Below are positions 6,202 to 39,526 of a DNA stretch of 64,000 nt, one piece after another. The notes under the pieces were generated by a model. It ran no database searches, was not told the origin of the DNA, and saw only the letters and a list, made by a program, of their open reading frames with translations. The first letter of the stretch is position 1, and each line of letters starts with the position of its first letter. The translations under genes and the position numbers were made by a program. Source of the stretch: Vicinamibacterales bacterium (lineage in GTDB: Bacteria > Acidobacteriota > Vicinamibacteria > Vicinamibacterales > CAVVIG01); contig JBFXAT010000003.1 of NCBI GenBank assembly GCA_050183995.1, positions 48,616 through 112,615 on the forward strand, written 5' to 3'.

Positions 6202-6243
6202 GATAAGCAGTTTGCTAGTATTGGAGGTTCCTAAACGGCGGGC

Positions 6244-6318
6244 GCCGGTATCGTCTAGGGGTCAGGACACGTGGTTCTCAGCCACGGGACCGGGGTTCGA
6301 ATCCCCGTACCGGTACCA
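6244..6318 (+). tRNA. tRNA-Glu (anticodon CUC), with encoded CCA
   Basis: Hand-folded cloverleaf. Acceptor GCCGGTA/TACCGGT (G1-U72 wobble), D arm GTCT-AGGGGTCA-GGAC. Anticodon stem CGTGG/CCACG with loop TT-CTC-AG. T arm CGGGG-TTCGAAT-CCCCG, then discriminator A and CCA. Total 75 nt. Confidence 0.9.
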
Positions 6319-6344
6319 TTCTTCATAGATTCCCTCTCCACAAC

Positions 6345-6376
6345 AGCCTCGCGCGATGCGCGAGGCTTTGCTTTTT
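6345..6376 (+). terminator. Rho-independent terminator after tRNA-Glu
   Basis: Perfect 10-bp stem AGCCTCGCGC-gat-GCGCGAGGCT, followed by TTGCTTTTT. Confidence 0.85.
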
Positions 6377-6452
6377 CCAGGGGCGACTCGATCTTCCAGA
6401 GGCCACGCGGCGAGACCGGCGTGCCGGTCGGCGGGCTGGTCGGCAGCCGGCG

Positions 6453-7652
6453 CTAGCGGCGGCCGCGCACGCGCGCGAGGAGATCGCGCGCGCGCTCCGC
6501 CGACGCGCCGTCGCGATCGCTGTCGCCGAGCTGAGCCGCCGTGCGGAGGTGCGCCTCGGCGGCGGACGCGTCCGACTCCTGGAGCGCGAGCCGTCCGAGC
6601 TCGAGGTGCGTGCGCCCGTGCACCCATGCGCGTCCTTCACTGCCCAGCGCGCGCTGCAGGTCCGATCGGGCGTCGGCCGAGCGGCCCATCGCGAGCCGCG
6701 CGGATCCCCTTCTGTAGAACCACAACGCGTCTTCTCCGAACATGCGTGGGCGCCGGTCGCGCTCGAGCATGCGGATGCCCTCGCTCAGCACCGATTCGGC
6801 GTCCGATGCGCGATCCCATCGAAGGAGCGTCGATCCCTGCTCGAGCACGAGCAGGCGATTGCGGGGATACCGCGCCCGCAGGGCATCCAACTGGCGCATC
6901 GCGGCGTCGAATCGCTTCTCGCGCGTATAGATCAACAGAAGCGCGAGCCGCGCGTCCGACTGGTTGTCCCCTGGGTAAGCCGCCGCCCCCTCGAGCAGCC
7001 GCAGACCGCGCTCTCGGCCGCCTCCGAAGCCGGCCATGTACGCGAAGAGGCGCGCGGGCAGCGACATCGAGGCGACCAGATAGCGATACGTGCCGACGAT
7101 CAGGCCGGCGTCCGCGCGCGCCGGATCGATCGCGAGGACGGTCTCGTGCTCGTCGAACGCGTCGCGAGCCGCGCCGAGCGCGGCGAGCACGCCTCCGTCC
7201 ACCGTCGCGAGATACGACGCGCGGATGCCCAGTGCCGCGCCGAGCTCGTAGTGCGCCTGCGCGTCTCGAGGCCGTGCGACGGTGTTCTGCCGGGCGATCG
7301 CGATCGCCTTGCCGATCGACGCGTGGAACTCGCTGGCGATCGCGGCCGGGGGTGGCGGCAGCGTGACGTCGCGGCTCGCGACGCGTCCCAGATAGCTGTC
7401 CACGGTCATCGTCCCGCGCAGCATCCCGATGCGCGCGAGCAGGGCGCCGGCGAGCCCGCGATGTGCGGCAGCGTCTTGCGGGTCCGCCGCGATCGCCTCC
7501 CGGTAGGTCTGGATCGCACGGTCGCCGTCGAGGTCGAAGAGCTCGTGCGTCGCCCGCGCCCGCAGCACGCGCGACGTCTCGTTGGCCGAGGCGGTCGTCG
7601 TGGCGATCGCGACCGCCGCGATCAGCGCCGCCGCGGTGCGCAAGGCTCCCAT
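6453..7652 (-). CDS. Secreted TPR-repeat protein
   Basis: Signal-like N-terminus MGALRTAAALIAAVAIATTTASA, then repeated A/L/R-rich helical pairs (QTYREAIAADPQDAAAHRGLAGALL...). Confidence 0.7.
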   Translation of the reverse strand: MGALRTAAALIAAVAIATTTASANETSRVLRARATHELFDLDGDRAIQTYREAIAADPQDAAAHRGLAGALLARIGMLRGTMTVDSYLGRVASRDVTLPPPPAAIASEFHASIGKAIAIARQNTVARPRDAQAHYELGAALGIRASYLATVDGGVLAALGAARDAFDEHETVLAIDPARADAGLIVGTYRYLVASMSLPARLFAYMAGFGGGRERGLRLLEGAAAYPGDNQSDARLALLLIYTREKRFDAAMRQLDALRARYPRNRLLVLEQGSTLLRWDRASDAESVLSEGIRMLERDRRPRMFGEDALWFYRRGSARLAMGRSADARSDLQRALGSEGRAWVHGRTHLELGRLALQESDASAAEAHLRTAAQLGDSDRDGASAERARDLLARVRGRR

Positions 7653-23188: not shown

Positions 23189-24901
23189 TCAGGAGCTCGC
23201 AGCCTGCTCCCGAAGCGCGCGGCGCAGCACCTTGCCGACCATCGTCTTCGGCAACTCCGCTCGGAACTCGACCTTGGCGGGCACCTTGTAGGGGGCGAGC
23301 TGCGACCGGCAGTGTGCGCGCAGCTCGGCTTCCGTGGCCGCGTGGCCGCTCCTGAGGACCACCCACGCGTGGACCGCCTCACCCTTCAGCGCATCGGGAA
23401 CGCCGGCGACTCCGACCTCTCCGACGCACGGGTGCGTCGCGAGCGCCTCTTCGACTTCCCGCGGCCACACCTGGTATCCGCTGGTCTTGATCAGGTCCTT
23501 CTTCCGATCGACGATGAAGAGGTAGCCTTCCGCGTCGAGGTATCCGAGGTCTCCCGTGTGGAGCCAGCGTCGGGTGCCATCTTCGTCCACGTGGTCGCGC
23601 AGCACCCCGGAGGTCTCCTCGGGCCGGTTCCAGAAGCCGATCATCAACTGGGCGCCCGTCAGGCAGATCTCGCCCACTTCTCCTGCCGGCATCTCGCGGG
23701 TGCCCTCGTCGGCGTCGTAGATCCGCACGCTCACGTCGGGCAGCGGCATGCCCACGGAGCCGAGCTTGTTCGGTCCATCGACCGGGTTGACGCAGAGCGC
23801 CATCATCGCTTCCGTCAGCGAGTAGCCTTCGACGATCCGCCCTCCCGTGATCGACTCGAAGCGCGCCTTGGTCTCGGCCAGCAGCGCCGACGCGCCCGAG
23901 AAGCAGATCCTGATCGACCGGAAGTCGACCTTGCCGTTCTGGACCGCCGGATGGTTGAGCAGGCCGGCGTACAGCGTCGGCACCCCGGTGAAGAACGCAG
24001 GCTTCACCTTCCTGATCGTCGCGATCAAGTCGTCGAGATCCCTCGGGTTGGGCACGAGCGCGAGGGGATTGCCCGTGACGAACGCGAGCGACTGGACGCC
24101 GACATTCGCGTAGACGTGAAACATCGGGAGCGGCAGCATCAGGCTGCTGTTGCCGAAGCCGAGCACGGAGGCCGTCCACGCGTGAATCTGCAGTCCGGTG
24201 AGCACGTAGGCGCCGTGCCTGCCCAGCACGCCCTTCGGTGTGCCGGTCGTGCCGCCGCTCATCAGGAGAACGGCGGGATCGTCGGGGCCGATCGCCGCTC
24301 GAGGGGGCCGATGGTCGGCGTGCTCGCGCATCAGATCCGCATACCGCAGATCTCCGTCGGCGAGCGCCACCCGATCGCCGTCGCGCTTCTCCCTGAGAAT
24401 CGTGAAGAGCACCCGCAGGAGCGGAGGGAAGTACTCCTTGATGTTGCTGACGATCACCCGCTTCACGGGTGTTCGCGCGCGCACCCGGCGAACGCGTTCG
24501 TAGAACCGCGAGAGCGTCACGATCGTCTCGACGCCGTGCTCCCGCAGCGGCTGTTCGATTTCGTGTTCGGTATAGATGGGGTTGAGCGGAGCGACGATGG
24601 CGCCCAGCTTCCAGGCGGCCAGCTCGGCGACGAAGAACTGCGGACAGTTCGGCAGCAGCAGCGCGACGCGGTCCCCCCGCCGGACGCCCAAGTGCGCCAG
24701 CGCCGCGGCAAACCGGTCGCTGTCGCGCTCCAGCTCCGCCCAGGTCATCGTCGCCCCCTTGAAGAGCAGGGCTGGTGCGCCGCTGTGCGAGCGCGCGAGC
24801 TCGGTGACGTAGTCGAGAAGAGTCTTATTGGGGTAGGGCGCCAGGGAATCCGGCACGCCGCGATCGTAGTGCGCCAGCCATGGGGCACGCGTCGTCGTCA
24901 T
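23189..24901 (-). CDS. AMP-dependent acyl-CoA synthetase/ligase (FadD-like)
   Basis: MTTTRAPWLAHYD...LLMSGGTTGTPKGV...GYSLTEA...TGDLGYLDAEGYLFIVDRKKDLIKTSGYQVWPREVE...PKTMVGKVLRR. The start is at the internal Met of the 756-aa track ORF. Confidence 0.9.
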   Translation of the reverse strand: MTTTRAPWLAHYDRGVPDSLAPYPNKTLLDYVTELARSHSGAPALLFKGATMTWAELERDSDRFAAALAHLGVRRGDRVALLLPNCPQFFVAELAAWKLGAIVAPLNPIYTEHEIEQPLREHGVETIVTLSRFYERVRRVRARTPVKRVIVSNIKEYFPPLLRVLFTILREKRDGDRVALADGDLRYADLMREHADHRPPRAAIGPDDPAVLLMSGGTTGTPKGVLGRHGAYVLTGLQIHAWTASVLGFGNSSLMLPLPMFHVYANVGVQSLAFVTGNPLALVPNPRDLDDLIATIRKVKPAFFTGVPTLYAGLLNHPAVQNGKVDFRSIRICFSGASALLAETKARFESITGGRIVEGYSLTEAMMALCVNPVDGPNKLGSVGMPLPDVSVRIYDADEGTREMPAGEVGEICLTGAQLMIGFWNRPEETSGVLRDHVDEDGTRRWLHTGDLGYLDAEGYLFIVDRKKDLIKTSGYQVWPREVEEALATHPCVGEVGVAGVPDALKGEAVHAWVVLRSGHAATEAELRAHCRSQLAPYKVPAKVEFRAELPKTMVGKVLRRALREQAASS

Positions 24902-24960: not shown

Positions 24961-25920
24961 CTAGGGGTGCGCGCTGGAGAGAAGCATCGAAAGCAGCGCC
25001 TTCTGCACGTGCAGGCGGTTCTCCGCCTGATCGAACACGACCGACGCGGGCGACTCGAATACGTCGGCCGTGACTTCTTCGCCCCGATGCGCGGGCAGGC
25101 AGTGCATGAAGAGCGCGCCTGGCTTCGCCTGCGACATGAGGTTCTCGTTCACCTGGTAGGGCCCGAACACCGAGCGGCGGACCTCCGCCTCCGATTCCTG
25201 GCCCATCGATGTCCATGTGTCCGTGTAGACGGCGTCGGCGCCGGACACCGCGTCGGCCGCCTCGGTGAAGAGGCGAAGCCGCGCACCCTGGCGCGCTGCA
25301 CCGGTGGCCTGGTGCACCGCTGCGTCGGACAGCTGATATCCCTCGGGGCTGGCGACGTGCACGTGAATCCCGAGCATCAGCGCCGCGTGCACCAGCGACA
25401 CGGCGACGTTGTTGCCGTCCCCGACGTAGGCGACCGTGCGGCCGCGAACCGTGCCCCACTGTTCACGCAGCGTCAACACGTCGGCCAGCGCCTGGCATGG
25501 ATGCTGTTCGTCGCTGAGCGCGTTGATCACGCGCAAGCGCGGCGCAGCCGCCGCGAACTCCTCCAGGAGGCGCTGCGAGAAGGTGCGGATCACCACGCCG
25601 TCGACCCATCGTTCGAGGTTGCGCGCCACGTCGGAAACCGGTTCGCGTTTGCCGAGCGCGGCATCGGGCTGGAGTCCGACGACGTTGCCGCCGAGCTCGA
25701 CGACGGCGATCTCGAACGTGGACCGCGTCCGAAGCGATGCCTTTTCGAAGAGCATGGCGACGTGGCGGCCCTCCAGCGCGGCAGACGTCGGGGCCTGGCG
25801 TCCGAGCGGGCGGTCGGCCTTGACGTGTCCGGCGATCTCGAGGCATCGCTCGAGCTCCGCGGCGTCGAAGTCGAGAACCGACAGGAAGTCCTTGCGAACG
25901 GGGGAGGCAGCGTGCGTCAT
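24961..25920 (-). CDS. argF: Ornithine carbamoyltransferase
   Basis: Shows FEKASLRTRSTFE...SDEQHPCQALAD...FMHCLPAHRGEEV. Confidence 0.93.
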   Translation of the reverse strand: MTHAASPVRKDFLSVLDFDAAELERCLEIAGHVKADRPLGRQAPTSAALEGRHVAMLFEKASLRTRSTFEIAVVELGGNVVGLQPDAALGKREPVSDVARNLERWVDGVVIRTFSQRLLEEFAAAAPRLRVINALSDEQHPCQALADVLTLREQWGTVRGRTVAYVGDGNNVAVSLVHAALMLGIHVHVASPEGYQLSDAAVHQATGAARQGARLRLFTEAADAVSGADAVYTDTWTSMGQESEAEVRRSVFGPYQVNENLMSQAKPGALFMHCLPAHRGEEVTADVFESPASVVFDQAENRLHVQKALLSMLLSSAHP

Positions 25921-25930
25921 AGGCTTCGAA

Positions 25931-27160
25931 TCAGGTGCGGTATTCCGCGTTGATGCGGACGTATTCGGCGCTGAAGTCGCAGGTCCAGACGGTGGCCGAT
26001 GCCGTGCCCAGACCGAGATCGACGCCCACCGAGACGTCGGTGTTGCGACCGAGGTAGTTGGCGGCCTCTGGCGCCGCTTCGTCGTGGGGGCGTCCGGCCT
26101 CGAACAGCACGATCGGTCCGATGCTCACGCGGGTTCGATCGAGCGCGAACGCCACGCCCGCACGTCCGGCCACGGCGACGAGCCTGCCCCAGTTGGGGTC
26201 GCCGCCGTGAATCGCGGTCTTGACGAGCGGCGAGTTGCCGATGGCCTTGGCGCATCGTCGCGCGTCATCGATCGACGCCGCGCCCGTCACGTCGACCGTG
26301 ACGAGCTTGGTGGCCCCCTCTCCGCCGCGGACGATGCCGATGGCCAGGGGAAGACAGACCGCCCTGACCGCATCGACGAAGCTCTCGTAGGAGGTTTCAT
26401 CGATCGTGACGCCGCTGGCGCCGTTGGCCAGCAGCATCACGCAGTCGTTGGTGGAGCATTCGCCGTCGACGGTGATGGCGTTGAACGTGTCGTCGACCAC
26501 CTCGCGCAGGGCGCGCTGCAGCAGCGGCCGCGGGACCTCGGCGTCGGTCGTGATGAACCCGAGCATGGTCGCCATCATCGGTTCGATCATGCCCGAGCCC
26601 TTGGCGATGCCCCCGACACAGATCTCGCGCCCGTCGATCGTGGCGCGCGCCGCCGCTTCTTTCGGGAACGGGTCGGTCGTCATGATCGCCCGCGCCGCCG
26701 CGGGTCCCTGGTCGGCGCCGAGCGCGGCGACCGCCGAGGGCAGACCCTCGCGAATGCGGTCCATCTTGAGGTTCACGCCGATGACGCCGGTCGAGGCGAC
26801 CAGCACCTCCTCGACCGGGCATCCCAGGCGAGCGGCTGTCAGCGCGGCCATCTCGCGCGCGTCCGACAGCCCTTCGGCCCCCGTGCACGCGTTCGCGCAG
26901 CCGCTGTTCGCGATGACGGCGCGCGCGCGCCCTTCCGTGGCGGCCAGGTGTTCGCGCGACACCACGACAGGTGCGGCCTGCGCGAGATTCGTCGTGAACA
27001 CCGCCGCCGCGGTGGCCGGCGCATCCGAGACGATCAGCGCCAGGTCCGGCCCGCGGCCGCTGGCCTTGATGCCGACGTGCACGCCGGCGGCGCGGAATCC
27101 GCGCGGAGTGGCCACGCCACCGGTGCAGGTTTCGAGCGTTCGAAGAGCGTTCGTACTCAT
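25931..27160 (-). CDS. argJ: Bifunctional glutamate N-acetyltransferase / amino-acid acetyltransferase
   Basis: Shows PRGFRAAGVHVGIK...ANSGCANACTG...GIAKGSGMIEPMMATMLGFITTDA (autoprocessing T)...GGDPNWGR...INAEYRT. Confidence 0.93.
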   Translation of the reverse strand: MSTNALRTLETCTGGVATPRGFRAAGVHVGIKASGRGPDLALIVSDAPATAAAVFTTNLAQAAPVVVSREHLAATEGRARAVIANSGCANACTGAEGLSDAREMAALTAARLGCPVEEVLVASTGVIGVNLKMDRIREGLPSAVAALGADQGPAAARAIMTTDPFPKEAAARATIDGREICVGGIAKGSGMIEPMMATMLGFITTDAEVPRPLLQRALREVVDDTFNAITVDGECSTNDCVMLLANGASGVTIDETSYESFVDAVRAVCLPLAIGIVRGGEGATKLVTVDVTGAASIDDARRCAKAIGNSPLVKTAIHGGDPNWGRLVAVAGRAGVAFALDRTRVSIGPIVLFEAGRPHDEAAPEAANYLGRNTDVSVGVDLGLGTASATVWTCDFSAEYVRINAEYRT

Positions 27161-27693
27161 ATGTGTCCGGGGACGAGCGGAACGATGCGCGGCGGAGCCT
27201 CGAGCGGAGCCTCGAGCGGAGCCTCGAGCGGAAGCACCATCGCATATTGTCCGCAGGAGCGGAATCGGGCGCACGTCACGCAGTCGTTGTGGATCTTCTC
27301 GGTCAGCCAGAGGTGCGGCACGATCGAGAATCCCATTCGCATGAAATACGCGGGGACGTGGGTGAAGGCGCAGAGCCGATCGAATCCGTCCTGCTGCGCG
27401 CGGACGCGAAGCTGCTCCACGATCTGTCCACCGACCCCGAGGCTTCTCGCCGCTGCGTCGACCGCCAGCGAGCGCACCTCGGCGACCTGGGGACTGAGCG
27501 GCGCCAGTTCCGCGCAGCCGACGATGCGCCGGCCGCGCACGGCCACGACGAATCGATCCGCATGGGCCGCGATGTCGCCGAGCGTCCGTGGGAGCAGGTG
27601 TCCCTCGGCTTCGTTCGCGGCGACGATCGCATGAATCCGCCGGGCGTCCGCGACACCTGCGGAACGCAGGGTGACGACGCGTCCCTTGGTCAC
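27157..27693 (-). CDS. GNAT-family N-acetyltransferase embedded in the arg operon (short N-acetylglutamate-synthase-like)
   Basis: GTG start in a GTGA overlap with the argD stop, with GGAGGAGG upstream. The acetyl-CoA-binding-like segment is ...VAEVRSLAVDAAARSLGVGGQIVE.... The C-terminus reads CVTCARFRSC...LEAPLEAPLEAP. The stop forms an ATGA overlap with the argJ start. Confidence 0.75.
   Translation of the reverse strand: MTKGRVVTLRSAGVADARRIHAIVAANEAEGHLLPRTLGDIAAHADRFVVAVRGRRIVGCAELAPLSPQVAEVRSLAVDAAARSLGVGGQIVEQLRVRAQQDGFDRLCAFTHVPAYFMRMGFSIVPHLWLTEKIHNDCVTCARFRSCGQYAMVLPLEAPLEAPLEAPPRIVPLVPGHI
27194..27229. repeat. Perfect 12-bp x3 tandem repeat inside the GNAT gene 3' end
   Basis: GGAGCCTCGAGC x3 on the plus strand, encoding LEAP-LEAP-LEAP on the minus strand. 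Confidence 0.9.
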
Positions 27694-28910
27694 GCGGCGC
27701 CTCCTCCGGCCTGCGCGGCGAAATCGGCGAGGGCGAGCTCCACCCGCTCGAGCCCCTCGTCGATCTCCGCTTCGGTGATGATGAACGGCGGGAGCAGCCG
27801 CACCACCGTGCCAGCGGTGCGATTGACGACGACACCCCGCGCGAGGCCGGCGGGCACCATGCCCGCGGCGTCGGTCTTCAGCTCGAGGCCGCGCATCACG
27901 CCCGCGCCGCGCACCTCCTTGACGATTGGGTGCCTGGCGGCGATCTCGTTGAGACGGCGCTCCATGTGCGCGCCGACGCGGCCGACGTGAGACAGCAGTC
28001 CGCCGGCAATCAGCTGGTCCACGAAGAACAGCGCGGCGCGGCAGGCGAGGAGATTGCCGCCGTACGTCGTGCCGTGGTCGCCGGCGGCGATGGTGCGCGC
28101 TATCTCGCCGCTCACGAGGGTGGCCCCGATCGGCACGCCGGCCCCCAGCGCCTTGCCGAGCGCCATCAGCTGCGGCTTCAGGCCGATGGCGGCAGAGTAG
28201 AAGGGATACCCGGTGCGCCCGCAGCCCGACTGGATCTCGTCGGCGACGAGGATGGCGCCGGTTCGCGCACACGCCTGATTCACCGCCTCGGCGAACGCCG
28301 GTGTGAGCGGACGGATGCCGCCCTCGCCCTGAATCGGCTCGACGATCACGGCCGCGGTCTTCTGCGTGACCGCCTCTGCGAGGAGATCCGGCCGGTTCGT
28401 CGCGATCCACCTGACGCCGGGAAGCAGCGGCTCGAACGGCGCGCGGTAGTGCTCGTCCGACGTGACCGACAGCGATCCGATCGTGCGTCCGTGGAACGAT
28501 TCCTCGAGCGCGATGATCTCGGGCCGCGTCTGGCCCAGCGTGTGCCAGTAGCGCCGCACGAACTTGAGCGAGGCCTCGATCGCCTCGGTGCCGCTGTTGC
28601 AGAAGAACGCCCGCTCGAGGCCCGACAGCGTCGTCAAACGCTCGGCGAGCTGGCCCTGCAGCGGGTGGAAGAACAGGTTCGAGGTGTGCAGGAGCGTCTG
28701 CGCCTGATCGGTAATCACGCGCGTGAGGCCCTCGTGCGCATGGCCGAGCGCCGTCACGCCGATGCCCGACAGCAGGTCGATGTACTCGCGCCCGTTCGAA
28801 TCGTAGAGGCGGACACCCTTCCCACGGACGAACGTCACCGGCTGGCGGCGGTACGTCTGAAGGACGTGCCGCGATTCCAACGTCTGCGTGTCGTCTGTCA
28901 CCATGGTCAT
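27690..28910 (-). CDS. argD: Acetylornithine aminotransferase
   Basis: Shows VRGKGVRLYDSNGREYIDLLSGIGVTALGH...NSGTEAIE...ADEIQSGCGRTG...LGKALGAG. Confidence 0.92.
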   Translation of the reverse strand: MTMVTDDTQTLESRHVLQTYRRQPVTFVRGKGVRLYDSNGREYIDLLSGIGVTALGHAHEGLTRVITDQAQTLLHTSNLFFHPLQGQLAERLTTLSGLERAFFCNSGTEAIEASLKFVRRYWHTLGQTRPEIIALEESFHGRTIGSLSVTSDEHYRAPFEPLLPGVRWIATNRPDLLAEAVTQKTAAVIVEPIQGEGGIRPLTPAFAEAVNQACARTGAILVADEIQSGCGRTGYPFYSAAIGLKPQLMALGKALGAGVPIGATLVSGEIARTIAAGDHGTTYGGNLLACRAALFFVDQLIAGGLLSHVGRVGAHMERRLNEIAARHPIVKEVRGAGVMRGLELKTDAAGMVPAGLARGVVVNRTAGTVVRLLPPFIITEAEIDEGLERVELALADFAAQAGGGAA

Positions 28911-29001
28911 GATCTGCTCCCGATCGTGCCGGCTGCCGCCGGCGTATCCGTGATCCGCCGAGTGATTCCGGCGGCGCTTCGCATCGAGCCCTCGCGTGAG
29001 A

Positions 29002-29838
29002 CTAGGGGTGCGTGACTGGTGCGGGGACGGGCACCAGTCGGGTCGTCGACGAGCGGGGTGGCGCGGCGACCAGTGCGCGCTCGAGCGAGGCTGCGTCGCG
29101 GCCGTCGACGATGACCACGTCAGCCACGCCGGCGTGGAGCGCGGCCTGACAGGCGCGCAGCTTCGCGACCATCCCTGCCGTCGCCGTGCCGCTGCCGATG
29201 AGGCGCTCGACCTCCTCGGCGCCGATCTCCGGCAGGGTGGCGCCGGCGGCGTCGAGCACTCCCGGTGTCGTGCCGGCGATGACGAGGCGGGCTGCCTGCA
29301 GTCTGGCGGCCAGGTGGCCGGCGAACGTGTCGGCGTTGACGTTGTAGAGCAGGCCGTCGGTGCCCAGGCCGATGCACGCGACGACAGGCACGTATCCCGC
29401 CGCGACCATCGCGTCGACCACGCGAACGTCAGCCGTGGCGATCGGCACGCCAACCCGCCCGAGATCCACGACGCGGCCGTCGACGGTGGTATGGGGCGGG
29501 GCCGGCTCGCACAATCCGCAGCCGCCGTCGGCGCCGGTGAGGCCGACGGCCCGCACGCCCGCTGTCTGCAGCGCGGCCACCAGTCGCGTGTTCACCCGGC
29601 CGGCCAGCACGCCCACCACCACGTCCAGCGTCGAGGCGTCGGTGATGCGCAAGCCGTCGACCTGCCGCTTCTCGATCCCGGCCGCGCGCAGCGCCGCGTC
29701 GATCTCCTTGCCGCCGCCATGGACGATCGCGAGCGGACGGGTCCGCGCTGCCGAGGTGACCGCGCGGACCACCGTTTCGAGATGGGACCGGTCCTCGAGC
29801 AGCTCGCCGCCGAATTTCAACAGGACCGGACGCGTCAC
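29002..29838 (-). CDS. argB: Acetylglutamate kinase
   Basis: VLLKFGGELL...IVHGGG...YNVNADTFAG...GTATAGMVAKL. GTG start in a GTGA overlap with the argC stop. Confidence 0.9.
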   Translation of the reverse strand: MTRPVLLKFGGELLEDRSHLETVVRAVTSAARTRPLAIVHGGGKEIDAALRAAGIEKRQVDGLRITDASTLDVVVGVLAGRVNTRLVAALQTAGVRAVGLTGADGGCGLCEPAPPHTTVDGRVVDLGRVGVPIATADVRVVDAMVAAGYVPVVACIGLGTDGLLYNVNADTFAGHLAARLQAARLVIAGTTPGVLDAAGATLPEIGAEEVERLIGSGTATAGMVAKLRACQAALHAGVADVVIVDGRDAASLERALVAAPPRSSTTRLVPVPAPVTHP

Positions 29839-30872
29839 GGCAGGCCGACCGTTTCCGGAGCGCCGATCATGACGTTCATGTTCTGGACCGCCTGTCCGGA
29901 GGCGCCCTTGAGCAGATTGTCGATCACCGAGACGATCACCATCCGGCCGGACGGATCCACGCGCCAGCCGATGTCGCAGAAGTTCGTGTGCGCGACGTGC
30001 TTGATCTCGGGCAGCGCCGCGCCGGTGAGCCGCACGAACGCCGCCTCGCGATACGCGGCGTCGTACAGGTCGCCAATCGCCTCTTCGGTGGTGCCCGCCG
30101 GCACGCGGACGTAGATCGTCGCGAGGATCCCACGGTCGAGCGGGACCAGGTGCGGCGTGAACGTGACAGGGCCGCCGAGGCCCTGCTCGATCTCCGCCCC
30201 ATGGCGATGGCCGAACACGCCGTAGGCGGAGAGGCTGCCGTGGACCTCGGAAAAATGGGTGCGCTCGGTCGGCGTCTTGCCCGCGCCGGAGACGCCGGAC
30301 TTCGCGTCGATGATCACGTCGGCACCGGCCGACAGCATGCCCGCGTCGGCGAGCGGCTTCAGCGCCAGCAGCGAGGCCGTCGGATAGCAGCCGGGATTGG
30401 CCACGACACGCGCGTCGCGCACGTCGTCGCGCGCGAACTCCGTGAGGCCGTAGGCGAGGCCGTGCGGCCACGCGTGCGTCTCGGGGTACCAGCGGCGGCG
30501 CAGCGTCTCGTCCCGCAGGCGGAACGCGCCCGAGAGGTCGATCACGCGGACGCCCTCGCCGGCGAGCGCCGGCGCCAGTTCGGCGGCGGCGGAGTCGGGC
30601 AGCGCCAGGAACACGATCTCCGCCTCCCGCGCCAGCGCTTCGGGATCGAGCGGCGTGATCGTTCCGGTCCACACGCGCGCCAGAGCCGGCAGCCGGCGGG
30701 CAGCGGAAGAGCCGGACGAGGTCGCCGCGGTGATCGCGACGTGCGGATGGCGGGCGAGGAGACGCAACAATTCCTGGCCCGTGTAGCCGGTGGCTCCAGC
30801 TACGGCGACGCGCACCGGCGCCGCCGCGTCCCCTCGCGTGCGTGCGGCCTCTGCCTCTGAGACTCTATGCAT
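29835..30872 (-). CDS. argC: N-acetyl-gamma-glutamyl-phosphate reductase
   Basis: VAVAGATGYTGQELLRLL...ANPGCYPTA...DAKSGVSGAG...VIDNLLKGASGQAVQNMN. The start is uncertain: ATG 30872 or the downstream GTG before VRVAVAG. Confidence 0.9.
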   Translation of the reverse strand: MHRVSEAEAARTRGDAAAPVRVAVAGATGYTGQELLRLLARHPHVAITAATSSGSSAARRLPALARVWTGTITPLDPEALAREAEIVFLALPDSAAAELAPALAGEGVRVIDLSGAFRLRDETLRRRWYPETHAWPHGLAYGLTEFARDDVRDARVVANPGCYPTASLLALKPLADAGMLSAGADVIIDAKSGVSGAGKTPTERTHFSEVHGSLSAYGVFGHRHGAEIEQGLGGPVTFTPHLVPLDRGILATIYVRVPAGTTEEAIGDLYDAAYREAAFVRLTGAALPEIKHVAHTNFCDIGWRVDPSGRMVIVSVIDNLLKGASGQAVQNMNVMIGAPETVGLP

Positions 30873-30876
30873 GGAA

Positions 30877-30892
30877 AAGAATACTTATACAG
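30877..30892. promoter_or_regulatory. ARG-box-like AT-rich element overlapping the argC -10 region and start
   Basis: AAGAATACTTATACAG contains GAATACTTATAC, which resembles the TGAATAATTATTCA core (11/14 by eye). It is the only AT-rich patch in the argC/argR divergent region. Confidence 0.35.
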
Positions 30893-31031: not shown

Positions 31032-31484
31032 ATGAAGTCCCGCCGCCAGGACGCCATCCTCGAGATCGTCGATCGCGAGCCGCTGCACAGCCAGGAGCAG
31101 CTGCGGCGACGCCTGCTGCGCGCGGGCTTCGAGGCCACGCAAGCGACCATCTCGCGGGACATCAAGGAGCTCGGACTGTTCAAGCGCGCCGGCGACGGCG
31201 CCTACCAGCGCGCCGGCTCCGTTGGCGCCAGTCCGGAGATGGCGCTCAACGCGCTGTCGCATGCCGCGGCCGAGTTCGTCCGCCGCATCGACCGCGTCCA
31301 GCAGCTCGTCGTCGTGCGGACGGGCGCCGGGCAGGCGCAGGCCCTCGCGCTGGCGATTGACGGTGCGCGGCTGACCGAAGCGGTCGGTACGATCGCCGGC
31401 GACGACACGATCCTGGTGATCGCTCGCGATCCCCGCCGCGCCGCCGCGCTCGCGAAGCGTCTGTCCGCGTTCGCAGGCCTGTGA
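31032..31484 (+). CDS. argR: Arginine repressor
   Basis: MKSRRQDAILEIVDREPLHSQEQLRRRLLRAGFEATQATISRDIKELGL...GTIAGDDTILVI. Confidence 0.92.
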   Translation: MKSRRQDAILEIVDREPLHSQEQLRRRLLRAGFEATQATISRDIKELGLFKRAGDGAYQRAGSVGASPEMALNALSHAAAEFVRRIDRVQQLVVVRTGAGQAQALALAIDGARLTEAVGTIAGDDTILVIARDPRRAAALAKRLSAFAGL

Positions 31485-32485
31485 TGCGGGTTGCGCTCGC
31501 CTACGCCGGGAGGCTCGCCGAGTCGGCTGCGATCCGCAGTCTCGTCGACGATCGCGCAGCCGAGGTCGTCACGGTGACGCTCGACTTCGGACGAGGCCGG
31601 CGGCTCGAGGGTGTGCGCGACCGGGCGCGTGCGCTCGGCGCGCGCCGCGCGCACGTCATCGATCAGCGCGAGCGCTTCGCCGAGCATTTCGTGCTGCCCG
31701 CCCTGGCGGCAGGTGCGCTGGGCGGCGGATCGGCGACGCGACTCCTTGCGCTGGCCGACGCGGCACTCGCCGAACGGCTGATCGAAGTGGCGTCGATCGA
31801 GGAAGTGGACGCCATCGCGCACGCGGGCGACGCATCGTCCCGCCTGCACCGCCTGCTGACCGCGCGGTCCTTGCCGGTGCCGGTCCTTGCGTTGAACCAG
31901 GAGAGCCCTCTCGCCTCCGGTGCGCTCGAGGCGTTTCGCCTCGCCCGGGGCCTGCCCGCGGACGCGCTCGACATCGAGGACCGCTTCGACGTGTGGGCGG
32001 CGGACCGCCGGGACCATGCCGGCGAGCACGCGGATGAGGACCCCTTGCGAGATCCTGGCGAGGCGCACGTCGACATCGCGTTCGCGCGCGGCGTTCCAGC
32101 GGGCTTGAACGGCGTGAGCCTGGCGCCGTACGAGCTCATCACGCATCTCGGAACCGTGGCCTCGCGTCATCGCCTCTCGGCGCCGCAGGTGTTGCATGCC
32201 GCGCAACGCGCCGTGACCGACGCGGTCCTGGACGCGGCTGCGCTCCCCGACGCCGCGCGGATCGCGTCGGCCGTGACGGCGGCGTACGAAGGGATCATTG
32301 ATCGCGGTGATTGGTTCGTCCCGCTGCGGCACGCGCTCGACGCCTTCTGTGCGACCCTGCAGGAGGGTGCGACCGGCACCGTTCGCCTCCGCCTGCAGCA
32401 CGGCACGCATACGACAGTCGACACGCAGCTCGGCGCTGCGCTTTCTCCGGCAGGGAACCCGCTTTCTCCGACAGGGAACCAATGA
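31481..32485 (+). CDS. Argininosuccinate-synthase-like protein with degenerate catalytic motifs (possible pseudoenzyme)
   Basis: Collinear with ArgG but with altered motifs. VALAYAGRLAES replaces AYSGGLDTS, HAGDASSRLHRLL replaces HGATGKGNDQVRFE, and the segment around ENRxVGxKSRxxYE is missing. It is 334 aa versus about 400. The start overlaps the argR stop and the stop overlaps the argH ATG. Confidence 0.7.
   Translation: MMRVALAYAGRLAESAAIRSLVDDRAAEVVTVTLDFGRGRRLEGVRDRARALGARRAHVIDQRERFAEHFVLPALAAGALGGGSATRLLALADAALAERLIEVASIEEVDAIAHAGDASSRLHRLLTARSLPVPVLALNQESPLASGALEAFRLARGLPADALDIEDRFDVWAADRRDHAGEHADEDPLRDPGEAHVDIAFARGVPAGLNGVSLAPYELITHLGTVASRHRLSAPQVLHAAQRAVTDAVLDAAALPDAARIASAVTAAYEGIIDRGDWFVPLRHALDAFCATLQEGATGTVRLRLQHGTHTTVDTQLGAALSPAGNPLSPTGNQ
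32439..32480 (+). repeat. 21-bp tandem duplication (1 mismatch) at the argG-like/argH junction
   Basis: CGCTTTCTCCGGCAGGGAACC / CGCTTTCTCCGACAGGGAACC, encoding LSPAGNP-LSPTGNQ. It ends 1 nt before the argH ATG. Confidence 0.9.
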
Positions 32486-33870
32486 GCACACTCTGGTCAG
32501 GCCGGTTCGATCAGGCGCCCGACGCGGCCGCCTTCGAATGGGGATCTTCTTTCAGCTTCGATCGCCGCCTGTTCGAAGACGATGTGACAGGCAGCCTCGC
32601 GTGGGCCCGCGCGCTCGAGGCCGCCGGTGTCCTGACCACGGAGGATGCGCAGGCCATTCAAGAGGCCCTGCACGCGATTCTCGAGGAAGGACGCACCAAC
32701 CCGGCGTTCGTAGACGGTCCGGACGAGGACGTTCACAGCTTCGTCGAGCGTCAACTGGTGGCGAGGGTGGGCGAGGCGGGCAAGCGCCTTCACACCGGGC
32801 GGTCGCGCAACGAACAGGTCTCGCTCGATCTGCGCTTGTACTTGCGGCGGCGCATCCCGCCGCTGCAGGCCCTGCTCGTGAGCGCGGCGGCCGCCCTGGT
32901 CAGGCAGGCCCAGGCCGCGGGGGACGCGCTGATGCCGTCCTACACGCACTTCAGGCCCGCGCAGCCCGTGCTGGTCGCACACTTCCTGCTCGCGCACGTC
33001 GCGCCGCTGCGCCGCGACGTCGAGCGCCTCTCCCGTGCGCGCGAGGAGGCCGGCGCGCTGCCGCTCGGCTCCGGCGCCATCGCAGGGACGAGCTATCCGG
33101 TCGACACCGGGCGGCTCGCCGGCGATCTCGGGTTCGACCGCGTGGTGCTCAACAGCATCGACGCTTCGTCCGATCGCGACTTCGCCGCGAGCTTCCTGTA
33201 CGCGTGCACCACGGCCATGGTGCACTTGAGCCGGCTCTCCGAAGACCTGATCATCCTGTGCGGTGACGAACACCGCTTCTTCGAGTTCTCGGACGCCCTG
33301 AGCACCGGCAGCAGCATGATGCCGCAGAAGAAGAACCCCGATCCGCTGGAGCTCGTGAGAGGGAAAGCGGGTCGTGTGGTGGGAGGCCTCGTGGCCCTCC
33401 TCACGATCATGAAGGGGCTGCCGAGCGGGTACAACAAGGACCTGCAGGAGGACAAGCACACGGTGTTCGACGCGGAGGACACCCTCACCGGCTGCGCGTC
33501 CGTCGTGGCGTCGGTCGTGGACGGGCTGACGCTCAACCGTGAGCGCGCCGCCGCGGCGGCATCCGGCTTGCTCCTTGCCACTGACGTGGCCGATTATCTG
33601 GTCGGACGTGGCGTGCCCTTCAGGCGAGCGCACGAGGTCGTCGGTGCGCTCGTGCGAAAGCTCATCGCCGAGCAGCGGGAGTTCTCCTCGCTCGGACTCG
33701 ACGAGTGGAGATCGTTCAGCGATCGGTTCGACGCCGATGTCGTCGAGCGCATCACGCCCGCGGCATCCGTTGCAGCCAAAACGACCCCGCAGTCGACCTC
33801 GCCTCACGCCGTGCGCCTGGCACTCGAGGAGGCGCAGCAGTGGCTCGCTCGCATGAAAGTCGAGGCGTGA
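32482..33870 (+). CDS. argH: Argininosuccinate lyase
   Basis: Shows MSTLWSGRFD...HTGRSRNEQV...GSSMMPQKKNPD... Confidence 0.93.
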   Translation: MSTLWSGRFDQAPDAAAFEWGSSFSFDRRLFEDDVTGSLAWARALEAAGVLTTEDAQAIQEALHAILEEGRTNPAFVDGPDEDVHSFVERQLVARVGEAGKRLHTGRSRNEQVSLDLRLYLRRRIPPLQALLVSAAAALVRQAQAAGDALMPSYTHFRPAQPVLVAHFLLAHVAPLRRDVERLSRAREEAGALPLGSGAIAGTSYPVDTGRLAGDLGFDRVVLNSIDASSDRDFAASFLYACTTAMVHLSRLSEDLIILCGDEHRFFEFSDALSTGSSMMPQKKNPDPLELVRGKAGRVVGGLVALLTIMKGLPSGYNKDLQEDKHTVFDAEDTLTGCASVVASVVDGLTLNRERAAAAASGLLLATDVADYLVGRGVPFRRAHEVVGALVRKLIAEQREFSSLGLDEWRSFSDRFDADVVERITPAASVAAKTTPQSTSPHAVRLALEEAQQWLARMKVEA

Positions 33871-33939: not shown

Positions 33940-34009
33940 TTCACTACCCTTTCGCAACATCTTCCCCCGCCGGCAGAGCAGTTACGAGGATCCGTGTGGA
34001 GTTTTGTTG

Positions 34010-34804
34010 ATGCAGCAGCGCCAGCCACGGCTCGGTGACATTCTGGACGACTACTGTCCACGTGAACGGCGACTGACCAACCACGCGGTCGTCGCCATGG
34101 TCGGCGACGCCGTCAAGCAGACACGCTGCACGACGTGCGAGTCCGAGCACGAGTACAAGCACGCCCACGTGCCGAAGCCTCGCAAGAAGCCCGACCAGTC
34201 GCTGTATTCCCAGGTGCTCGCTGGTGTCGCGCCGAAGCGCGTGACGACGCCCTCGCCCGCCCACGAGGAGGCCGCGCTGTCCGAGGATCGTGAACAGGCC
34301 GAGGAGCCCGATGCCACCGAGCTCGAGTCGGAATCGGAGCCGGCCGCCTTCCAGCCTTCCCCTCGCGGAGCCGCGACGGCGTTCACGCTGTCGACGAGCG
34401 ACGCCGCCGGCGAGCGCTACGACGCCGAGGCACACGACGCGGAGGTGCACGACGCGGAGGAGCACGACGACGAGCGGGAAGGTGAACCACCGTCCGAAGA
34501 AGGCCCCGTCCACCGGCAGCTCATTCGCGCGCAGCTGCCGCGGCACGAGGGGCAGGTGGCCACCACGCGTCAGGCGCCGGACTTCACCATTCGTATGCCG
34601 ACGACCGGCCGCGCCAACCGTTTTCGTCCGCGGCAGCAGCGCGGCGGGCAGCAGTTCCAAGGCAATCGCGGCGGCGGTGCGCCGTCAGGTGGTCACGCCC
34701 GAGGGGCTGGCCCCGGCCCCGGCGCCCGGCCGCAAGGTGGCCGCCCGCAAGACCGGCCGCGTTCGGGTCAGCGTCGTGGCTCGGGCCGGAACCGCCCGAA
34801 GTAG
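34010..34804 (+). CDS. Hypothetical protein: N-terminal Cys-containing (zinc-ribbon-like) module, acidic repeat region and Arg/Gly-rich basic tail
   Basis: MQQRQPRLGDILDDYCPRERR...RCTTCESEHEYKH, then DAEAHDAEVHDAEEHDDE (15-bp x3 repeat at 34427..34471). The tail reads RGGQQFQGNRGGG...RPRSGQRRGSGRNRPK. GGAG lies 8 nt upstream of the ATG. Confidence 0.55.
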   Translation: MQQRQPRLGDILDDYCPRERRLTNHAVVAMVGDAVKQTRCTTCESEHEYKHAHVPKPRKKPDQSLYSQVLAGVAPKRVTTPSPAHEEAALSEDREQAEEPDATELESESEPAAFQPSPRGAATAFTLSTSDAAGERYDAEAHDAEVHDAEEHDDEREGEPPSEEGPVHRQLIRAQLPRHEGQVATTRQAPDFTIRMPTTGRANRFRPRQQRGGQQFQGNRGGGAPSGGHARGAGPGPGARPQGGRPQDRPRSGQRRGSGRNRPK

Positions 34805-36927: not shown

Positions 36928-38289
36928 CTAGTCGACTGGAATGCTGGACGTGCTCGACCCGTCCGGCTGGAGGGCGAACTCCGCAATCTTCCGGTAGAGC
37001 GTGCCTCGGCTGATGGCGAGCACTCGTGCGGCCTCCTTCTTGTTCCACTGAACGGCCTCGAGCACGCGTGAGATGTGCGCGCGTTCTGCTTCGGCCAGCG
37101 TCGACAGCCGTTCCGACCCGAGCGGTTGTGCCGGCTCGGGACGGAGGAAGTCGACATCCTGCGCCCGAATCGCCCTGCCGGGCGCCGAGAGCGCCGCGCG
37201 GGCCACCGTGCTCTCCAGCTCCCGGATGTTGCCCGGCCACGCATAGGCGAGCAGCGCGTCGAGCGCGTCGCGCGTGAAGGACCGGCTGTCGGCGGGCAGC
37301 CCCTGCGCAAGACAGTGCCGCGCGAGGAATCGCTCGGCGAGGATCGGAATGTCGACGCGCCGTTCGCGCAGCGACGGCAGCCTGATCGCGAAGGCGTTCA
37401 CGCGGTAGTAGAGATCTTCGCGAAAGCGTCCGTCCCGCACGAACTCGTCGAGGGGCCGGTTGGTCGCCGAAATCAGCCGGAAGTCCACCGTGATCGAGCG
37501 GTGGCCTCCGAGGCGTTCGAACCGGCGTTCTTCGAGCACGCGCAGCAGCTTCGCCTGGGCGATGAGCGCCAGGTCGCCGATTTCGTCGAGGAAGAGCGTC
37601 CCATTGTCGGCCAGCTCGAGCCGCCCCGGCTTGCGCTCGTGTGCGCCGGTGAACGCGCCGCGTTCGTGCCCGAAGATCTCCGACTCGAACAGCGTGTCTG
37701 GCAGCGCGGCGCAGTTCACCGCCTGGAAGCGCCCGCTCGCGCGTCGACTCAGCTCGTGGATCATCCGCGCGACCACTTCCTTGCCCGATCCGGTCGGGCC
37801 CAGGATCAGGACCGAGATGTCGGACTTCGCCGCCGTCCTGATCCACTCGAACGCGATCAGCATCTTCTCGTCGCGCCCGATCATCTCCCTGAAGCGCTGC
37901 ACGGCAGGGGAGCGGTCTTCCACCGTCGCCGCGGCGCGCCGCTCGAGGAACTCGTCGAGGAGGAGCGCTGTGGTGTCGTCGGTCGGCCGCGTCGCGACGA
38001 AGCGTGACGGGAACAGCGTGCCCGGAATCATGTACGCGACGCCGAAGTCGACCAGTTCGCGCACGCAGGCCTCGACGTCCATTCGCAACCGGCCGACCGC
38101 CTGCATCAGCGCCTCGAGCTCGAACGCTTCGTCCGGGTGGGCGTTCAGGAATCGCAGCAGACCCGCGCGCAGCGGCGATTGCACCAGCGCGCGGAATCGT
38201 GCGGCGGCGTCGGCGATCGCGGCGTCGGGGAGGGTCGCAGTGCCGATCTGACTGGCACCGATCGTCGGGTCGTTCATTGCTGCATGCAA
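36928..38289 (-). CDS. Sigma-54-dependent transcriptional activator (bEBP) with a non-receiver N-terminal domain
   Basis: Walker A GPTGSGKE, GAFTGA motif (ERGAFTGAHE), C-terminal Fis-type HTH AARVLAISRGTLYRKI. The N-terminal 150 aa are neither receiver-like nor GAF/PAS-like by eye. Confidence 0.9.
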   Translation of the reverse strand: MHAAMNDPTIGASQIGTATLPDAAIADAAARFRALVQSPLRAGLLRFLNAHPDEAFELEALMQAVGRLRMDVEACVRELVDFGVAYMIPGTLFPSRFVATRPTDDTTALLLDEFLERRAAATVEDRSPAVQRFREMIGRDEKMLIAFEWIRTAAKSDISVLILGPTGSGKEVVARMIHELSRRASGRFQAVNCAALPDTLFESEIFGHERGAFTGAHERKPGRLELADNGTLFLDEIGDLALIAQAKLLRVLEERRFERLGGHRSITVDFRLISATNRPLDEFVRDGRFREDLYYRVNAFAIRLPSLRERRVDIPILAERFLARHCLAQGLPADSRSFTRDALDALLAYAWPGNIRELESTVARAALSAPGRAIRAQDVDFLRPEPAQPLGSERLSTLAEAERAHISRVLEAVQWNKKEAARVLAISRGTLYRKIAEFALQPDGSSTSSIPVD

Positions 38290-38389
38290 TGTATCGGCCG
38301 GTCGGCCGCCGAGCGACAGCGCAGCCGCAGGGATCGCTGATGATCGGGTGGTAAGCTAGGTGTCCGCTTCGACTTCAAGGAGACCGTAC

Positions 38390-39526
38390 GTGCCGCATCG
38401 CGCCCCAGGATCGCCCGGAATCTCCCGCCAGCCGTTTCTTTCAGGCAAGCCGATCACCTATTACCGCCCATCGGGCAGTTCCCAGGTGAAGCACCTGATC
38501 GACGAGGGGTTTCAAGCCTTCAACGCGGGGCGCCTGTCGGAGGCCTGCCAGATCTTCAGCGAGAAGATGCTCGCGCCCGAGAACGACACGACGATCGGGC
38601 TCACGGTGGCGGGAGCCCTGACGCCGGCCGGCCTTGGCGGCTGTGTGATCGAGCTGATGGATCGCGGGCTCGTCGACTTCGTGATCTCGACCGGCGCCAA
38701 CCTCTATCACGACCTCCACTACGCGCTGAACTTCACGCTGCGCCGCGGGTCGCCGTTCCTGAACGACGTGGAGCTGTACGAAGAGGGCGTCATCCGCATC
38801 TACGACGTGCTCTTTCCCGCAACGGTGCTGCTCGAGACCGACTTGTACATCCGTGATTTCATCGCGCGATCCGGGCTGAACGAGGCGATCTCGACCTCGG
38901 AGTTCCACTACCGCCTGGGGCTCGACCTGCTCGAACGGCAGCCGGGCTGCGAAGAGTATTCGGTGCTCGCGCGCGCTGCGCGCGCCGGCGTGCCCATCTA
39001 TACGTCGTCGCCGGGCGACAGCTCCATAGGCATGAATATCGCCTATCACGAGCTGATGAACGGTAGCCGGCTGATGATCGACCCGAACCGCGACGTCAAC
39101 GAGATCTGCGCCATCGTGCTCGCCGGAAAGAAGAACGGCTGCGTGATCCTCGGCGGCGGCTCGCCGAAGAATTTCTACCTGCAGGCGCAGCCGACGTTGT
39201 GGGAGGTCTACGGCATTCCGAAGGGCGGGAACGACTACTTCATCCAGATCACCACCGATCAGGTCGTGTGGGGCGGCCTCTCCGGCGCCACCCCCGCCGA
39301 AGCCGTGAGCTGGGGCAAGGTGAACCCGGGCGTGCTTCCGGACACGGTCGTTGCGTACTGCGACTCGACCATCGCATTCCCCCTGTTCTGCGAGTACGCG
39401 GTGGCCTCGGCGAATGCCCGCAGGCCGCGCAAGGACCTGCTGCACAAGCGCGACGCTCTCGTGGCCGCGTTGGCCACCGAGGCGCGGGCCGCCGACGAGA
39501 AGCGCAGGGCCGACGCGGCGGGATGA
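38390..39526 (+). CDS. Deoxyhypusine synthase family protein
   Basis: TIGLTVAGALTPAGLGGCVIELMDRGLVDFVISTGANLYHDLHYALNF...ILGGGSPKNF. The track start is GTG 38360. GTG 38390 is preferred because AAGGAG lies 7 nt upstream. Confidence 0.85.
   Translation: MPHRAPGSPGISRQPFLSGKPITYYRPSGSSQVKHLIDEGFQAFNAGRLSEACQIFSEKMLAPENDTTIGLTVAGALTPAGLGGCVIELMDRGLVDFVISTGANLYHDLHYALNFTLRRGSPFLNDVELYEEGVIRIYDVLFPATVLLETDLYIRDFIARSGLNEAISTSEFHYRLGLDLLERQPGCEEYSVLARAARAGVPIYTSSPGDSSIGMNIAYHELMNGSRLMIDPNRDVNEICAIVLAGKKNGCVILGGGSPKNFYLQAQPTLWEVYGIPKGGNDYFIQITTDQVVWGGLSGATPAEAVSWGKVNPGVLPDTVVAYCDSTIAFPLFCEYAVASANARRPRKDLLHKRDALVAALATEARAADEKRRADAAG

Follow-up and report, generated by a model that had tools for sequence, protein, structure and literature searches.

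An eroded, probably non-catalytic argininosuccinate synthase homologue occupies the argG slot of the arginine operon in Vicinamibacteria

Argininosuccinate synthase (ArgG), which converts citrulline, aspartate and ATP to argininosuccinate, AMP and PPi, is generally regarded as an enzyme that no cell making arginine from citrulline can do without. In a 64,000-nucleotide stretch of a Vicinamibacterales genome (assembly GCA_050183995.1, contig JBFXAT010000003.1, positions 48,616 to 112,615 of the forward strand; hereafter the window), the argG slot between argR (arginine repressor) and argH (argininosuccinate lyase) is occupied by an open reading frame (ORF), here called argG', whose product is derived from ArgG and retains at most one of 17 ligand residues. 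The argR-argG'-argH genes diverge from an argC-argB-argD-GNAT-argJ-argF operon on the minus strand (24961..30872), and the coordinates of the features are collected in Table 1. The likeliest start of argG' is the ATG at 31484, which gives 333 aa, and the alternative GTG at 31481 gives 334 aa; an earlier note on this DNA had placed a 334-aa ORF at 31481-32485, and the ORF is real, although the shorter protein is the likelier product. Both junctions of the gene are overlapping, as the same note had described. The argR stop codon TGA (31482-31484) shares one base with the argG' ATG (TGATG), and the argG' stop codon TGA (32483-32485) overlaps the argH ATG (32482-32484) in the sequence ATGA. Because of these overlapping junctions, and because no plus-strand promoter-like or terminator-like site was found from argR to the end of argH, the three genes would form a single transcript.

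The codon-position G+C content of argG' (0.80/0.53/0.83) follows a coding-frame pattern, with the third position slightly below the 0.86-0.89 of the neighbouring genes. The protein is identical to the NCBI protein P0001 from a Vicinamibacterales metagenome-assembled genome (MAG), for which the Prokaryotic Genome Annotation Pipeline gives only the name 'argininosuccinate synthase domain-containing protein', and two Logan assemblies made independently, SRR27751815 and SRR27751816, encode the identical protein. An assembly or frameshift artefact is ruled out by these two other assemblies and by a divergence that consists of substitutions and in-frame indels. An antisense ORF of 429 aa that spans all of argG' was treated as an artefact of high G+C content, homology backing the plus-strand frame.

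The earlier identification of the ORF as an ArgG homologue is borne out by profile searches. Pfam PF00764, the N-terminal HUP domain, matches argG' with E 2.4e-17 (63.9 bits against a gathering cut-off of 27), and PF20979 matches with E 2e-12 (47.6 bits against 27), the latter match being confined to positions 106-176 of a 219-position profile. Among solved structures, the closest relative is the Thermus ArgG (PDB 1j1z, E 7e-25). The scores for the equivalog models of ArgG lie far below their cut-offs, with 124.3 bits against 334 for NF001770 and 116 against 268.2 for TIGR00032; likewise, NF010392 gives 88.3 bits against 512, and the argG_rel model NF038212 gives 58.9 against 425. An AlphaFold2 (AF2) model built on the family alignment has a mean predicted local distance difference test score (pLDDT) of 88.5 and a predicted template modelling score (pTM) of 0.86. 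In a Foldseek search of the PDB, the top matches of this model are ArgG structures, with template modelling (TM) scores of 0.77-0.81 and E 3e-22. Such a confident model, together with ArgG structures as its best matches, indicates that the two-domain ArgG fold survives in argG' though the active site is gone.

The ligand set used here consists of the 17 ATP, citrulline and aspartate residues listed for human ASS1 (PMC13289927), in human numbering. The human sequence used matches every residue number cited in that paper, and the Thermus and E. coli reference sequences served as alignment guides only. Losses were read in both the phmmer alignment to Thermus ArgG, which is ungapped at the PP-loop, and the MAFFT alignment. 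Across this set, argG' keeps one residue in MAFFT (R127) and none in phmmer (His at R127), the lowest score among about 110 homologues scored, and it keeps 7 of the 40 positions inspected. The PP-loop reads AYAGRLAES for AYSGGLDTS, with the changes S12A, G14R, D16A and T17E; all four are substitution-sensitive P-loop residues in human ASS1 (PMC13289927). The segment YEGxYLLGTSxARP, which carries the citrulline and ATP contacts Y87, T91 and R95, has become LGGGSATRLLALADA, and the block HGATGKGNDQVRFE reads HAGDASSRLHRLL, in which T119, N123 and D124 are lost and R127 is ambiguous. Among the citrulline and aspartate ligands Y87, T119, N123, D124, R127, S189, E191, E270 and Y282, R127 at most is kept, and Q40 and R95 are lost as well. 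The loop GRxDxVENRxVGxKSRxxYE (E270...Y282) is deleted at the site HRLS/APQV, leaving a MAFFT gap of about 22 columns, and P0280, the nearest relative, lacks this loop too. At the C-terminus, argG' ends shortly past the GxVRLRL strand, and the C-terminal arm with the tetramer-building helix (about 45-70 residues) is absent; the 333-aa protein compares with 400-412 aa in canonical ArgG, and nothing is aligned to human residues of about 372-412. In human ASS1, this arm forms part of the neighbouring active site, and single substitutions at several ligand positions kill the activity (PMC13289927). The losses read by hand in the earlier note (PP-loop, HGATGKGNDQVRFE block, YEG region and KSR-loop deletion) hold in both alignments, and its worry that a hand alignment might have missed conserved residues proved groundless in these alignments. 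Taken together, the losses are strong evidence against argininosuccinate synthase activity in this protein.

The relatives of argG' were sought in a scan with one genome per GTDB species, which gave 248 relatives, and the best 80 of the 248 were examined. Almost all of these 80 are MAGs of Vicinamibacterales or Vicinamibacteria, and nearly all carry the arrangement argR-X-argH. The synteny of AMP-ligase/argF/argJ/GNAT/argD/argB/argC diverging from argR/X/argH is conserved around the relatives of argG', and the order of argF/J/GNAT/D/B/C and argR/X/argH is identical for a canonical or an eroded X. In another Vicinamibacterales MAG, X is a near-canonical ArgG of 386 aa, and many related species have in this slot an ArgG of 400-412 aa with 17/17 ligand residues. 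The series is graded. Some clades show one or two odd substitutions (G122D+R127G; T119R; T119I+G122I), C-terminally truncated forms retain 11-16 of the 17 residues, and heavily eroded forms of 331-377 aa retain 1-9, with the window copy the most eroded. With canonical ArgG found in the same argR-argG-argH slot of related Vicinamibacterales, argG' is the positional orthologue of the operon argG and not a paralogue, which the earlier note had offered as one possibility.

On a neighbour-joining tree of ArgH alone, the eroded forms are scattered at several places, and each eroded ArgG' is closest to the canonical ArgG of its ArgH neighbours, not to the other eroded forms. This separation on the tree, combined with the nearness to local canonical ArgG, points to erosion in situ within Vicinamibacteria, at least about 8 times independently. 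Insertion of one paralogue family at this position was considered and ruled out, since the eroded forms group with their local canonical orthologues. Among 1.84 billion cluster representatives searched exhaustively with phmmer, 1974 were hits; 142 of the 147 new best representatives at 50% identity keep nine or fewer of the 17 ligand residues and measure 290-380 aa, and every eroded representative whose context was checked lies in argR-X-argH. Eroded ArgG' is a very large and diverse class. Furthermore, overlaps of -1 or -4 between argR and X are typical of the most eroded clades, whereas in canonical loci argR and argG are separated by +20 to +245; the gene starts used here were picked by proximity to the alignment.

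Several intermediate forms were noted in the same survey. In 12 Vicinamibacterales species (L035, L050, L052, L054, L057, L059, L062, L064, L068, L069, L071 and L081), a full-length 403-aa ArgG at about 5995-7206 of each locus carries G122D+R127G; substitutions of R127 kill human ASS1, and the pair may represent a compensated, functional variant of the active site. In otherwise canonical operon ArgG, T119R occurs at L038, L041, L053 and L056, and T119I+G122I at P0014, P0016/L076 and L058. T119I is reported to be inactive in human ASS1 (PMC13289927), and these T119 variants may represent an early stage of erosion. Some long-read MAG loci contain probable frameshifts; in L022 (5992-8037), the ArgG ORF of 681 aa runs into argH, as a frameshift or an ArgG-ArgH fusion.

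Selection was estimated from pairwise Nei-Gojobori ratios of nonsynonymous to synonymous substitution rates (dN/dS), with dS partly saturated and a strong G+C bias. Identity to the reference species stays at 60-68% for ArgH, ArgR and ArgC regardless of the ArgG state, and falls for ArgG from about 70% to 39-50%. Close pairs of eroded ArgG' give dN/dS of 0.17-0.35 (L078-L079, 0.215 at dS 0.29; L011-L015, 0.24 at dS 0.50), compared with 0.04-0.17 in the flanking genes, and argH remains at 0.04-0.15 in the lineages with eroded argG'. The ratio of ArgG to ArgH dN/dS is 0.83 in canonical species and 0.91 in the G122D/R127G clade, and it rises to 2.7 in eroded clade A and 3.9 in eroded clade B. Constraint acts on both domains of ArgG' and is tightest in the N-domain (dN/dS 0.10-0.18 for most eroded pairs), and in clade A 128 alignment columns are at least 90% conserved. 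The nearest relative of the window copy is P0280/L092 with 57% identity. In both, the junctions read TGATG and ATGA, the PP-loop remnant has the form AGxxAES and the E270...Y282 loop is deleted. Between the two, argG' has dN 0.343, dS 0.867 and dN/dS 0.40, against 0.135 for ArgR and 0.067 for the N-terminus of ArgH, and all four indels in argG' are in frame (4/4). On the window branch, dN of ArgG' is twice that of its clade-A relatives, with the other genes evolving at normal rates. These values suggest relaxed but real purifying selection on argG', with the signal weakest in the window lineage. An open ORF in itself is weak evidence, because a G+C-rich gene can survive neutral substitution; the argument for maintenance therefore rests on dN/dS and in-frame indels and not on openness. 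On this footing, the case that the family is maintained as protein-coding is strong, and the earlier description of a still maintained gene stands.

We consider it moderately probable that argG' encodes a non-catalytic pseudoenzyme derived from ArgG, which is translationally coupled to argR and argH and kept for a role of the protein itself, ArgG activity being supplied from elsewhere. The ligand residues are lost with the fold kept, and purifying selection, by crude pairwise estimates, continued after the loss. In this arrangement, the descendant of the operon argG would have lost catalysis and its product could not adenylate citrulline. Translation of argG' would be coupled to that of argR and would pass ribosomes on to argH, a role suggested by the tight overlaps in eroded clades as against the real argR-argG spacer in canonical loci. 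Since the constraint at the amino-acid level is unexplained by coupling alone, the protein would also be kept for a non-catalytic role inherited from ancestral ArgG, such as a binding or scaffolding partner in arginine metabolism. The argininosuccinate for ArgH would then be made by another enzyme encoded outside the window. To our knowledge, argininosuccinate is the only substrate of ArgH, and ArgH is strongly constrained in the lineages with eroded argG', so argininosuccinate would have to be produced there, most simply by a second ArgG encoded elsewhere in the genome. Such an enzyme would also explain the repeated relaxation of catalytic constraint on the operon copy.

Several points weigh against a retained pseudoenzyme backed by a second ArgG. 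A tblastn search of the 64-kb window and of 90 fetched loci, with type I ArgG of the same clade, Thermus, human and E. coli type II ArgG as queries, found no other argG. In protein searches with the canonical ArgG of L021 and L019, the best 120 matches were all 80-100% identical to the query and none lay on a contig equal in length to one that bears an eroded copy, which is not evidence of absence. Conservation of ArgH is the one pointer to the second enzyme, and the non-catalytic role and the partner of argG' are putative. The window lineage, moreover, has a dN/dS of 0.40 with a branch dN about four times that of the neighbouring genes, estimated under the saturation and G+C bias stated above. 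In a neutral simulation of this gene, which has 72% G+C, the ORF stayed open with P = 0.27 at 0.1 substitutions/site and with P = 0.02 at 0.3. A recent complete loss of function in the window copy is conceivable, and this copy may be drifting towards complete loss because the constraint is weakest in its lineage.

The high G+C content, which makes stop codons rare, and the points that follow lend some weight to the view that argG' is a functionless relic, in which the ORF stays open only for ribosome read-through from argR to argH, the protein is idle and the copy is on its way out. Overlaps of -1/-4 on both sides are typical of the most eroded clades, stops or frameshifts would be polar, and all indels between the window and L092 are in frame; besides, dN/dS is highest for the window copy, whose branch in ArgG' is also the longest. 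At its 3' end the gene carries in addition a 21-bp tandem duplication (2.0 copies and 95% matches in Tandem Repeats Finder), which encodes LSPAGNP/LSPTGNQ and doubles the Shine-Dalgarno-like GGGAA before the argH ATG; it is recent, because the nearest relative L092 lacks it. Selection for openness only, however, predicts a dN/dS near 1 and not the observed 0.17-0.40, with still lower values in the N-domain, and it would not account for the 128 conserved columns of clade A or the confident fold prediction. Independent lineages all retain both domains at 290-380 aa without shrinking to a short spacer. A functionless relic is accordingly considered unlikely. Among the three options left by the earlier note, the evidence favours a non-catalytic protein with argG elsewhere, and pure decay is made unlikely by the dN/dS values and in-frame indels.

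A different possibility, which we regard as rather improbable, is that Vicinamibacteria with an eroded argG lack a canonical argininosuccinate synthase genome-wide while retaining a strongly constrained ArgH and all upstream enzymes of the pathway, and that an undescribed enzyme or a remodelled ArgG-fold protein, possibly with a partner, makes argininosuccinate. If so, the repeated erosion would mark repeated take-over by an unknown route. It is also distinctly improbable that the ArgG fold has been re-used for another reaction or ligand, so that the 'eroded' motifs form a new active site. ArgG-fold enzymes with other chemistry exist, and the nitrile synthetase ArtA (PDB 9leh and 9lei) matches the model at TM 0.77. 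In clade A, whose loop reads SGSLEGS, 24 positions are conserved in a clade-specific way, among them the conservative acid replacements D16->E and D182->E, and Q40, R95 and I98 are retained, so that a nucleotide site could still form. The known ArgG-like enzymes, however, keep the PP-loop, which in the window reads AGRLAES with Q40 and R95 lost in addition, and the argG_rel score is far below its cut-off. Furthermore, the independent lineages eroded to differing sequences without converging on one motif set, and the strict arginine-operon context gives no hint of another pathway. Least probable, and very doubtful, is that argG' is still the only argininosuccinate synthase of the cell with a radically remodelled active site: its position in the exact argG slot of an otherwise complete and constrained pathway, the lack of another argG in the window or the fetched flanks, and the 12-species G122D+R127G clade, which is as constrained as canonical ArgG and indicates that unusual active sites are tolerated in the order, speak for it. 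Against it, 16-17 of the 17 ligand residues have changed and the loop E270-Y282 is gone, as is the C-terminal arm, which in human ASS1 helps to form the neighbouring active site, and single substitutions at several such positions abolish human ASS1 activity. The rate of eroded ArgG', moreover, is 3-4 times that of ArgH, while canonical ArgG is slower than ArgH.

Compared with type I ArgG (EC 6.3.4.5; TIGR00032/NF001770; PDB 1j1z, 7k5z and 2nz2), argG' shares common ancestry, the two-domain fold and, in related Vicinamibacterales, the same operon position. In contrast, it has no PP-loop and at most one of the citrulline and aspartate ligands, and both its ENR..KSR loop and its C-terminal oligomerisation helix are missing; its equivalog scores are far too low, and measured against ArgH its evolution is 3-4 times as fast. 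The nitrile synthetase ArtA/NitB and the family NF038212, 'argininosuccinate synthase-related protein', also use the ArgG fold for something other than argininosuccinate. They are ATP-dependent and belong to natural-product clusters, whereas argG' has no ATP loop and lies in an arginine operon; at 14-15% identity, ArtA and argG' are not close relatives. Pseudoenzymes derived from working enzymes of an operon or pathway are exemplified by HisZ, which is paralogous to histidyl-tRNA synthetase and regulates HisG, and by the 'prozymes' of trypanosomatids. In these cases, as with argG', a dead homologue is retained under selection beside its parent pathway, and such retention is usually put down to regulation or scaffolding. 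HisZ and the prozymes, however, are paralogues that stand beside an active enzyme and have a known partner, while argG' is an orthologue in the original slot and has been eroded many times independently. Our search of the literature found nothing on arginine synthesis in Vicinamibacteria or on ArgG pseudoenzymes.

Throughout a diverse group of soil Acidobacteria, the operon is otherwise intact but its canonical argG slot holds a probably dead copy. Such eroded proteins are named 'argininosuccinate synthase' in older annotation and by the Joint Genome Institute, and because of this label pathway reconstructions of these abundant soil bacteria would wrongly score arginine synthesis as complete via argG'. 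The independent erosions, at least about 8, together with the graded intermediates, provide a natural replicate series showing which parts of an enzyme stay once catalysis is unneeded. They raise the questions of what makes argininosuccinate in these cells and what job the ArgG fold does after catalysis.

The rest of the arginine pathway in the window is in order. ArgH, ArgF, ArgC, ArgJ, ArgD and ArgB each exceed their NCBIfam equivalog cut-offs, and the catalytic motifs of ArgH are intact, including the catalytic-loop motif GSSMMPQKKNPD. Co-erosion of ArgH is ruled out by these motifs and by SRNEQ in 72/72 of the ArgH proteins examined. In Vicinamibacteria this SRNEQ stands in place of the usual SRNDQ at all 72 loci, and it is unrelated to the ArgG state because it is common to them all. 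Separately, ArgH of clade A, L087 and L043 reads THFRPAQP for TH[LM]RRAQP, the Arg-to-Pro change being confined to lineages with eroded ArgG'.

Table 1. Positions of the genes and sequence features in the window (strand as +/-; scores are given against the model cut-off).
Feature	Position	Strand	Remarks
AMP-binding (ANL family) gene	23189-24901	-	570 aa
argF	24961-25920	-	NCBIfam 352 vs 281
argJ	25931-27160	-	NCBIfam 502 vs 351
GNAT acetyltransferase	27157-27675	-	between argD and argJ; NF005840 116 bits vs 154
12-bp repeat	27192-27232		perfect, x3.4
argD	27690-28910	-	NCBIfam 440 vs 410
argB	29002-29838	-	NCBIfam 178 vs 151
argC	29835-30872	-	NCBIfam 374 vs 234
AT-rich site	30880-30892		beside argC start
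argR	31032..31484	+	arginine repressor, 150 aa; TIGR01529 125.3 bits vs 130.45, borderline
antisense ORF	31202-32491	-	429 aa
argG'	31484..32485	+	333-aa ArgG-derived protein; N-terminal HUP-like and synthetase-like domains, no C-terminal helix
PP-loop remnant	31499..31525	+	S12, G14, D16, T17
Y87...T91...R95 segment remnant	31718..31762	+	citrulline and ATP contacts
HGATGKGNDQVRFE remnant	31820..31858	+	T119, N123, D124, R127
loop-deletion site	32168..32191	+	E270...Y282
tandem duplication	32439..32480	+	21 bp; argG' 3' end
argH	32482..33870	+	argininosuccinate lyase, 462 aa, intact; TIGR00838 517 bits vs 279.5
Cys-rich protein gene	34004-34804	+	266 aa
15-bp tandem repeat	34419-34474		x3.7
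sigma-54 activator gene	36928-38289	-
deoxyhypusine-synthase-like gene	38360-39526	+	homospermidine synthase type

The neighbouring genes were considered as a cause of the erosion and ruled out, as the AMP-binding gene occurs only with clade A and the gene for the Cys-rich protein occurs with either ArgG state. About 60 bp separate the end of argF from the AMP-binding gene, which follows on the same strand and probably encodes an acyl-CoA ligase. It also follows argF in the clade-A loci P0004, P0002 and P0428 and not in the loci of P0016 and P0015, and no link between this gene and arginine was shown. The 266-aa protein downstream of argH has no Pfam match. Its Cys-rich N-terminal domain of 75 aa is 58-90% identical across 33 loci with canonical and eroded ArgG alike, and the remainder is acidic and then turns into Arg/Gly-rich low-complexity sequence, in which the 15-bp tandem repeat lies.

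The GNAT acetyltransferase resembles the N-acetylglutamate synthase domain that is fused to ArgH in PRK12308-type proteins, and its position between argD and argJ is kept in most related loci. At its 3' end, just upstream of argJ, the perfect 12-bp repeat (GCGGAGCCTCGA) encodes PLEAPLEAPLEAP. In the divergent region between argC and argR, the AT-rich sequence GAATACTTATACA resembles half an ARG box, with 10/14 matches by eye to the ARG-box core TGAATAAAAATTCA. The deoxyhypusine-synthase-like gene and the sigma-54 activator gene, a few kb downstream of the argH end, are both syntenic in clade-A relatives.

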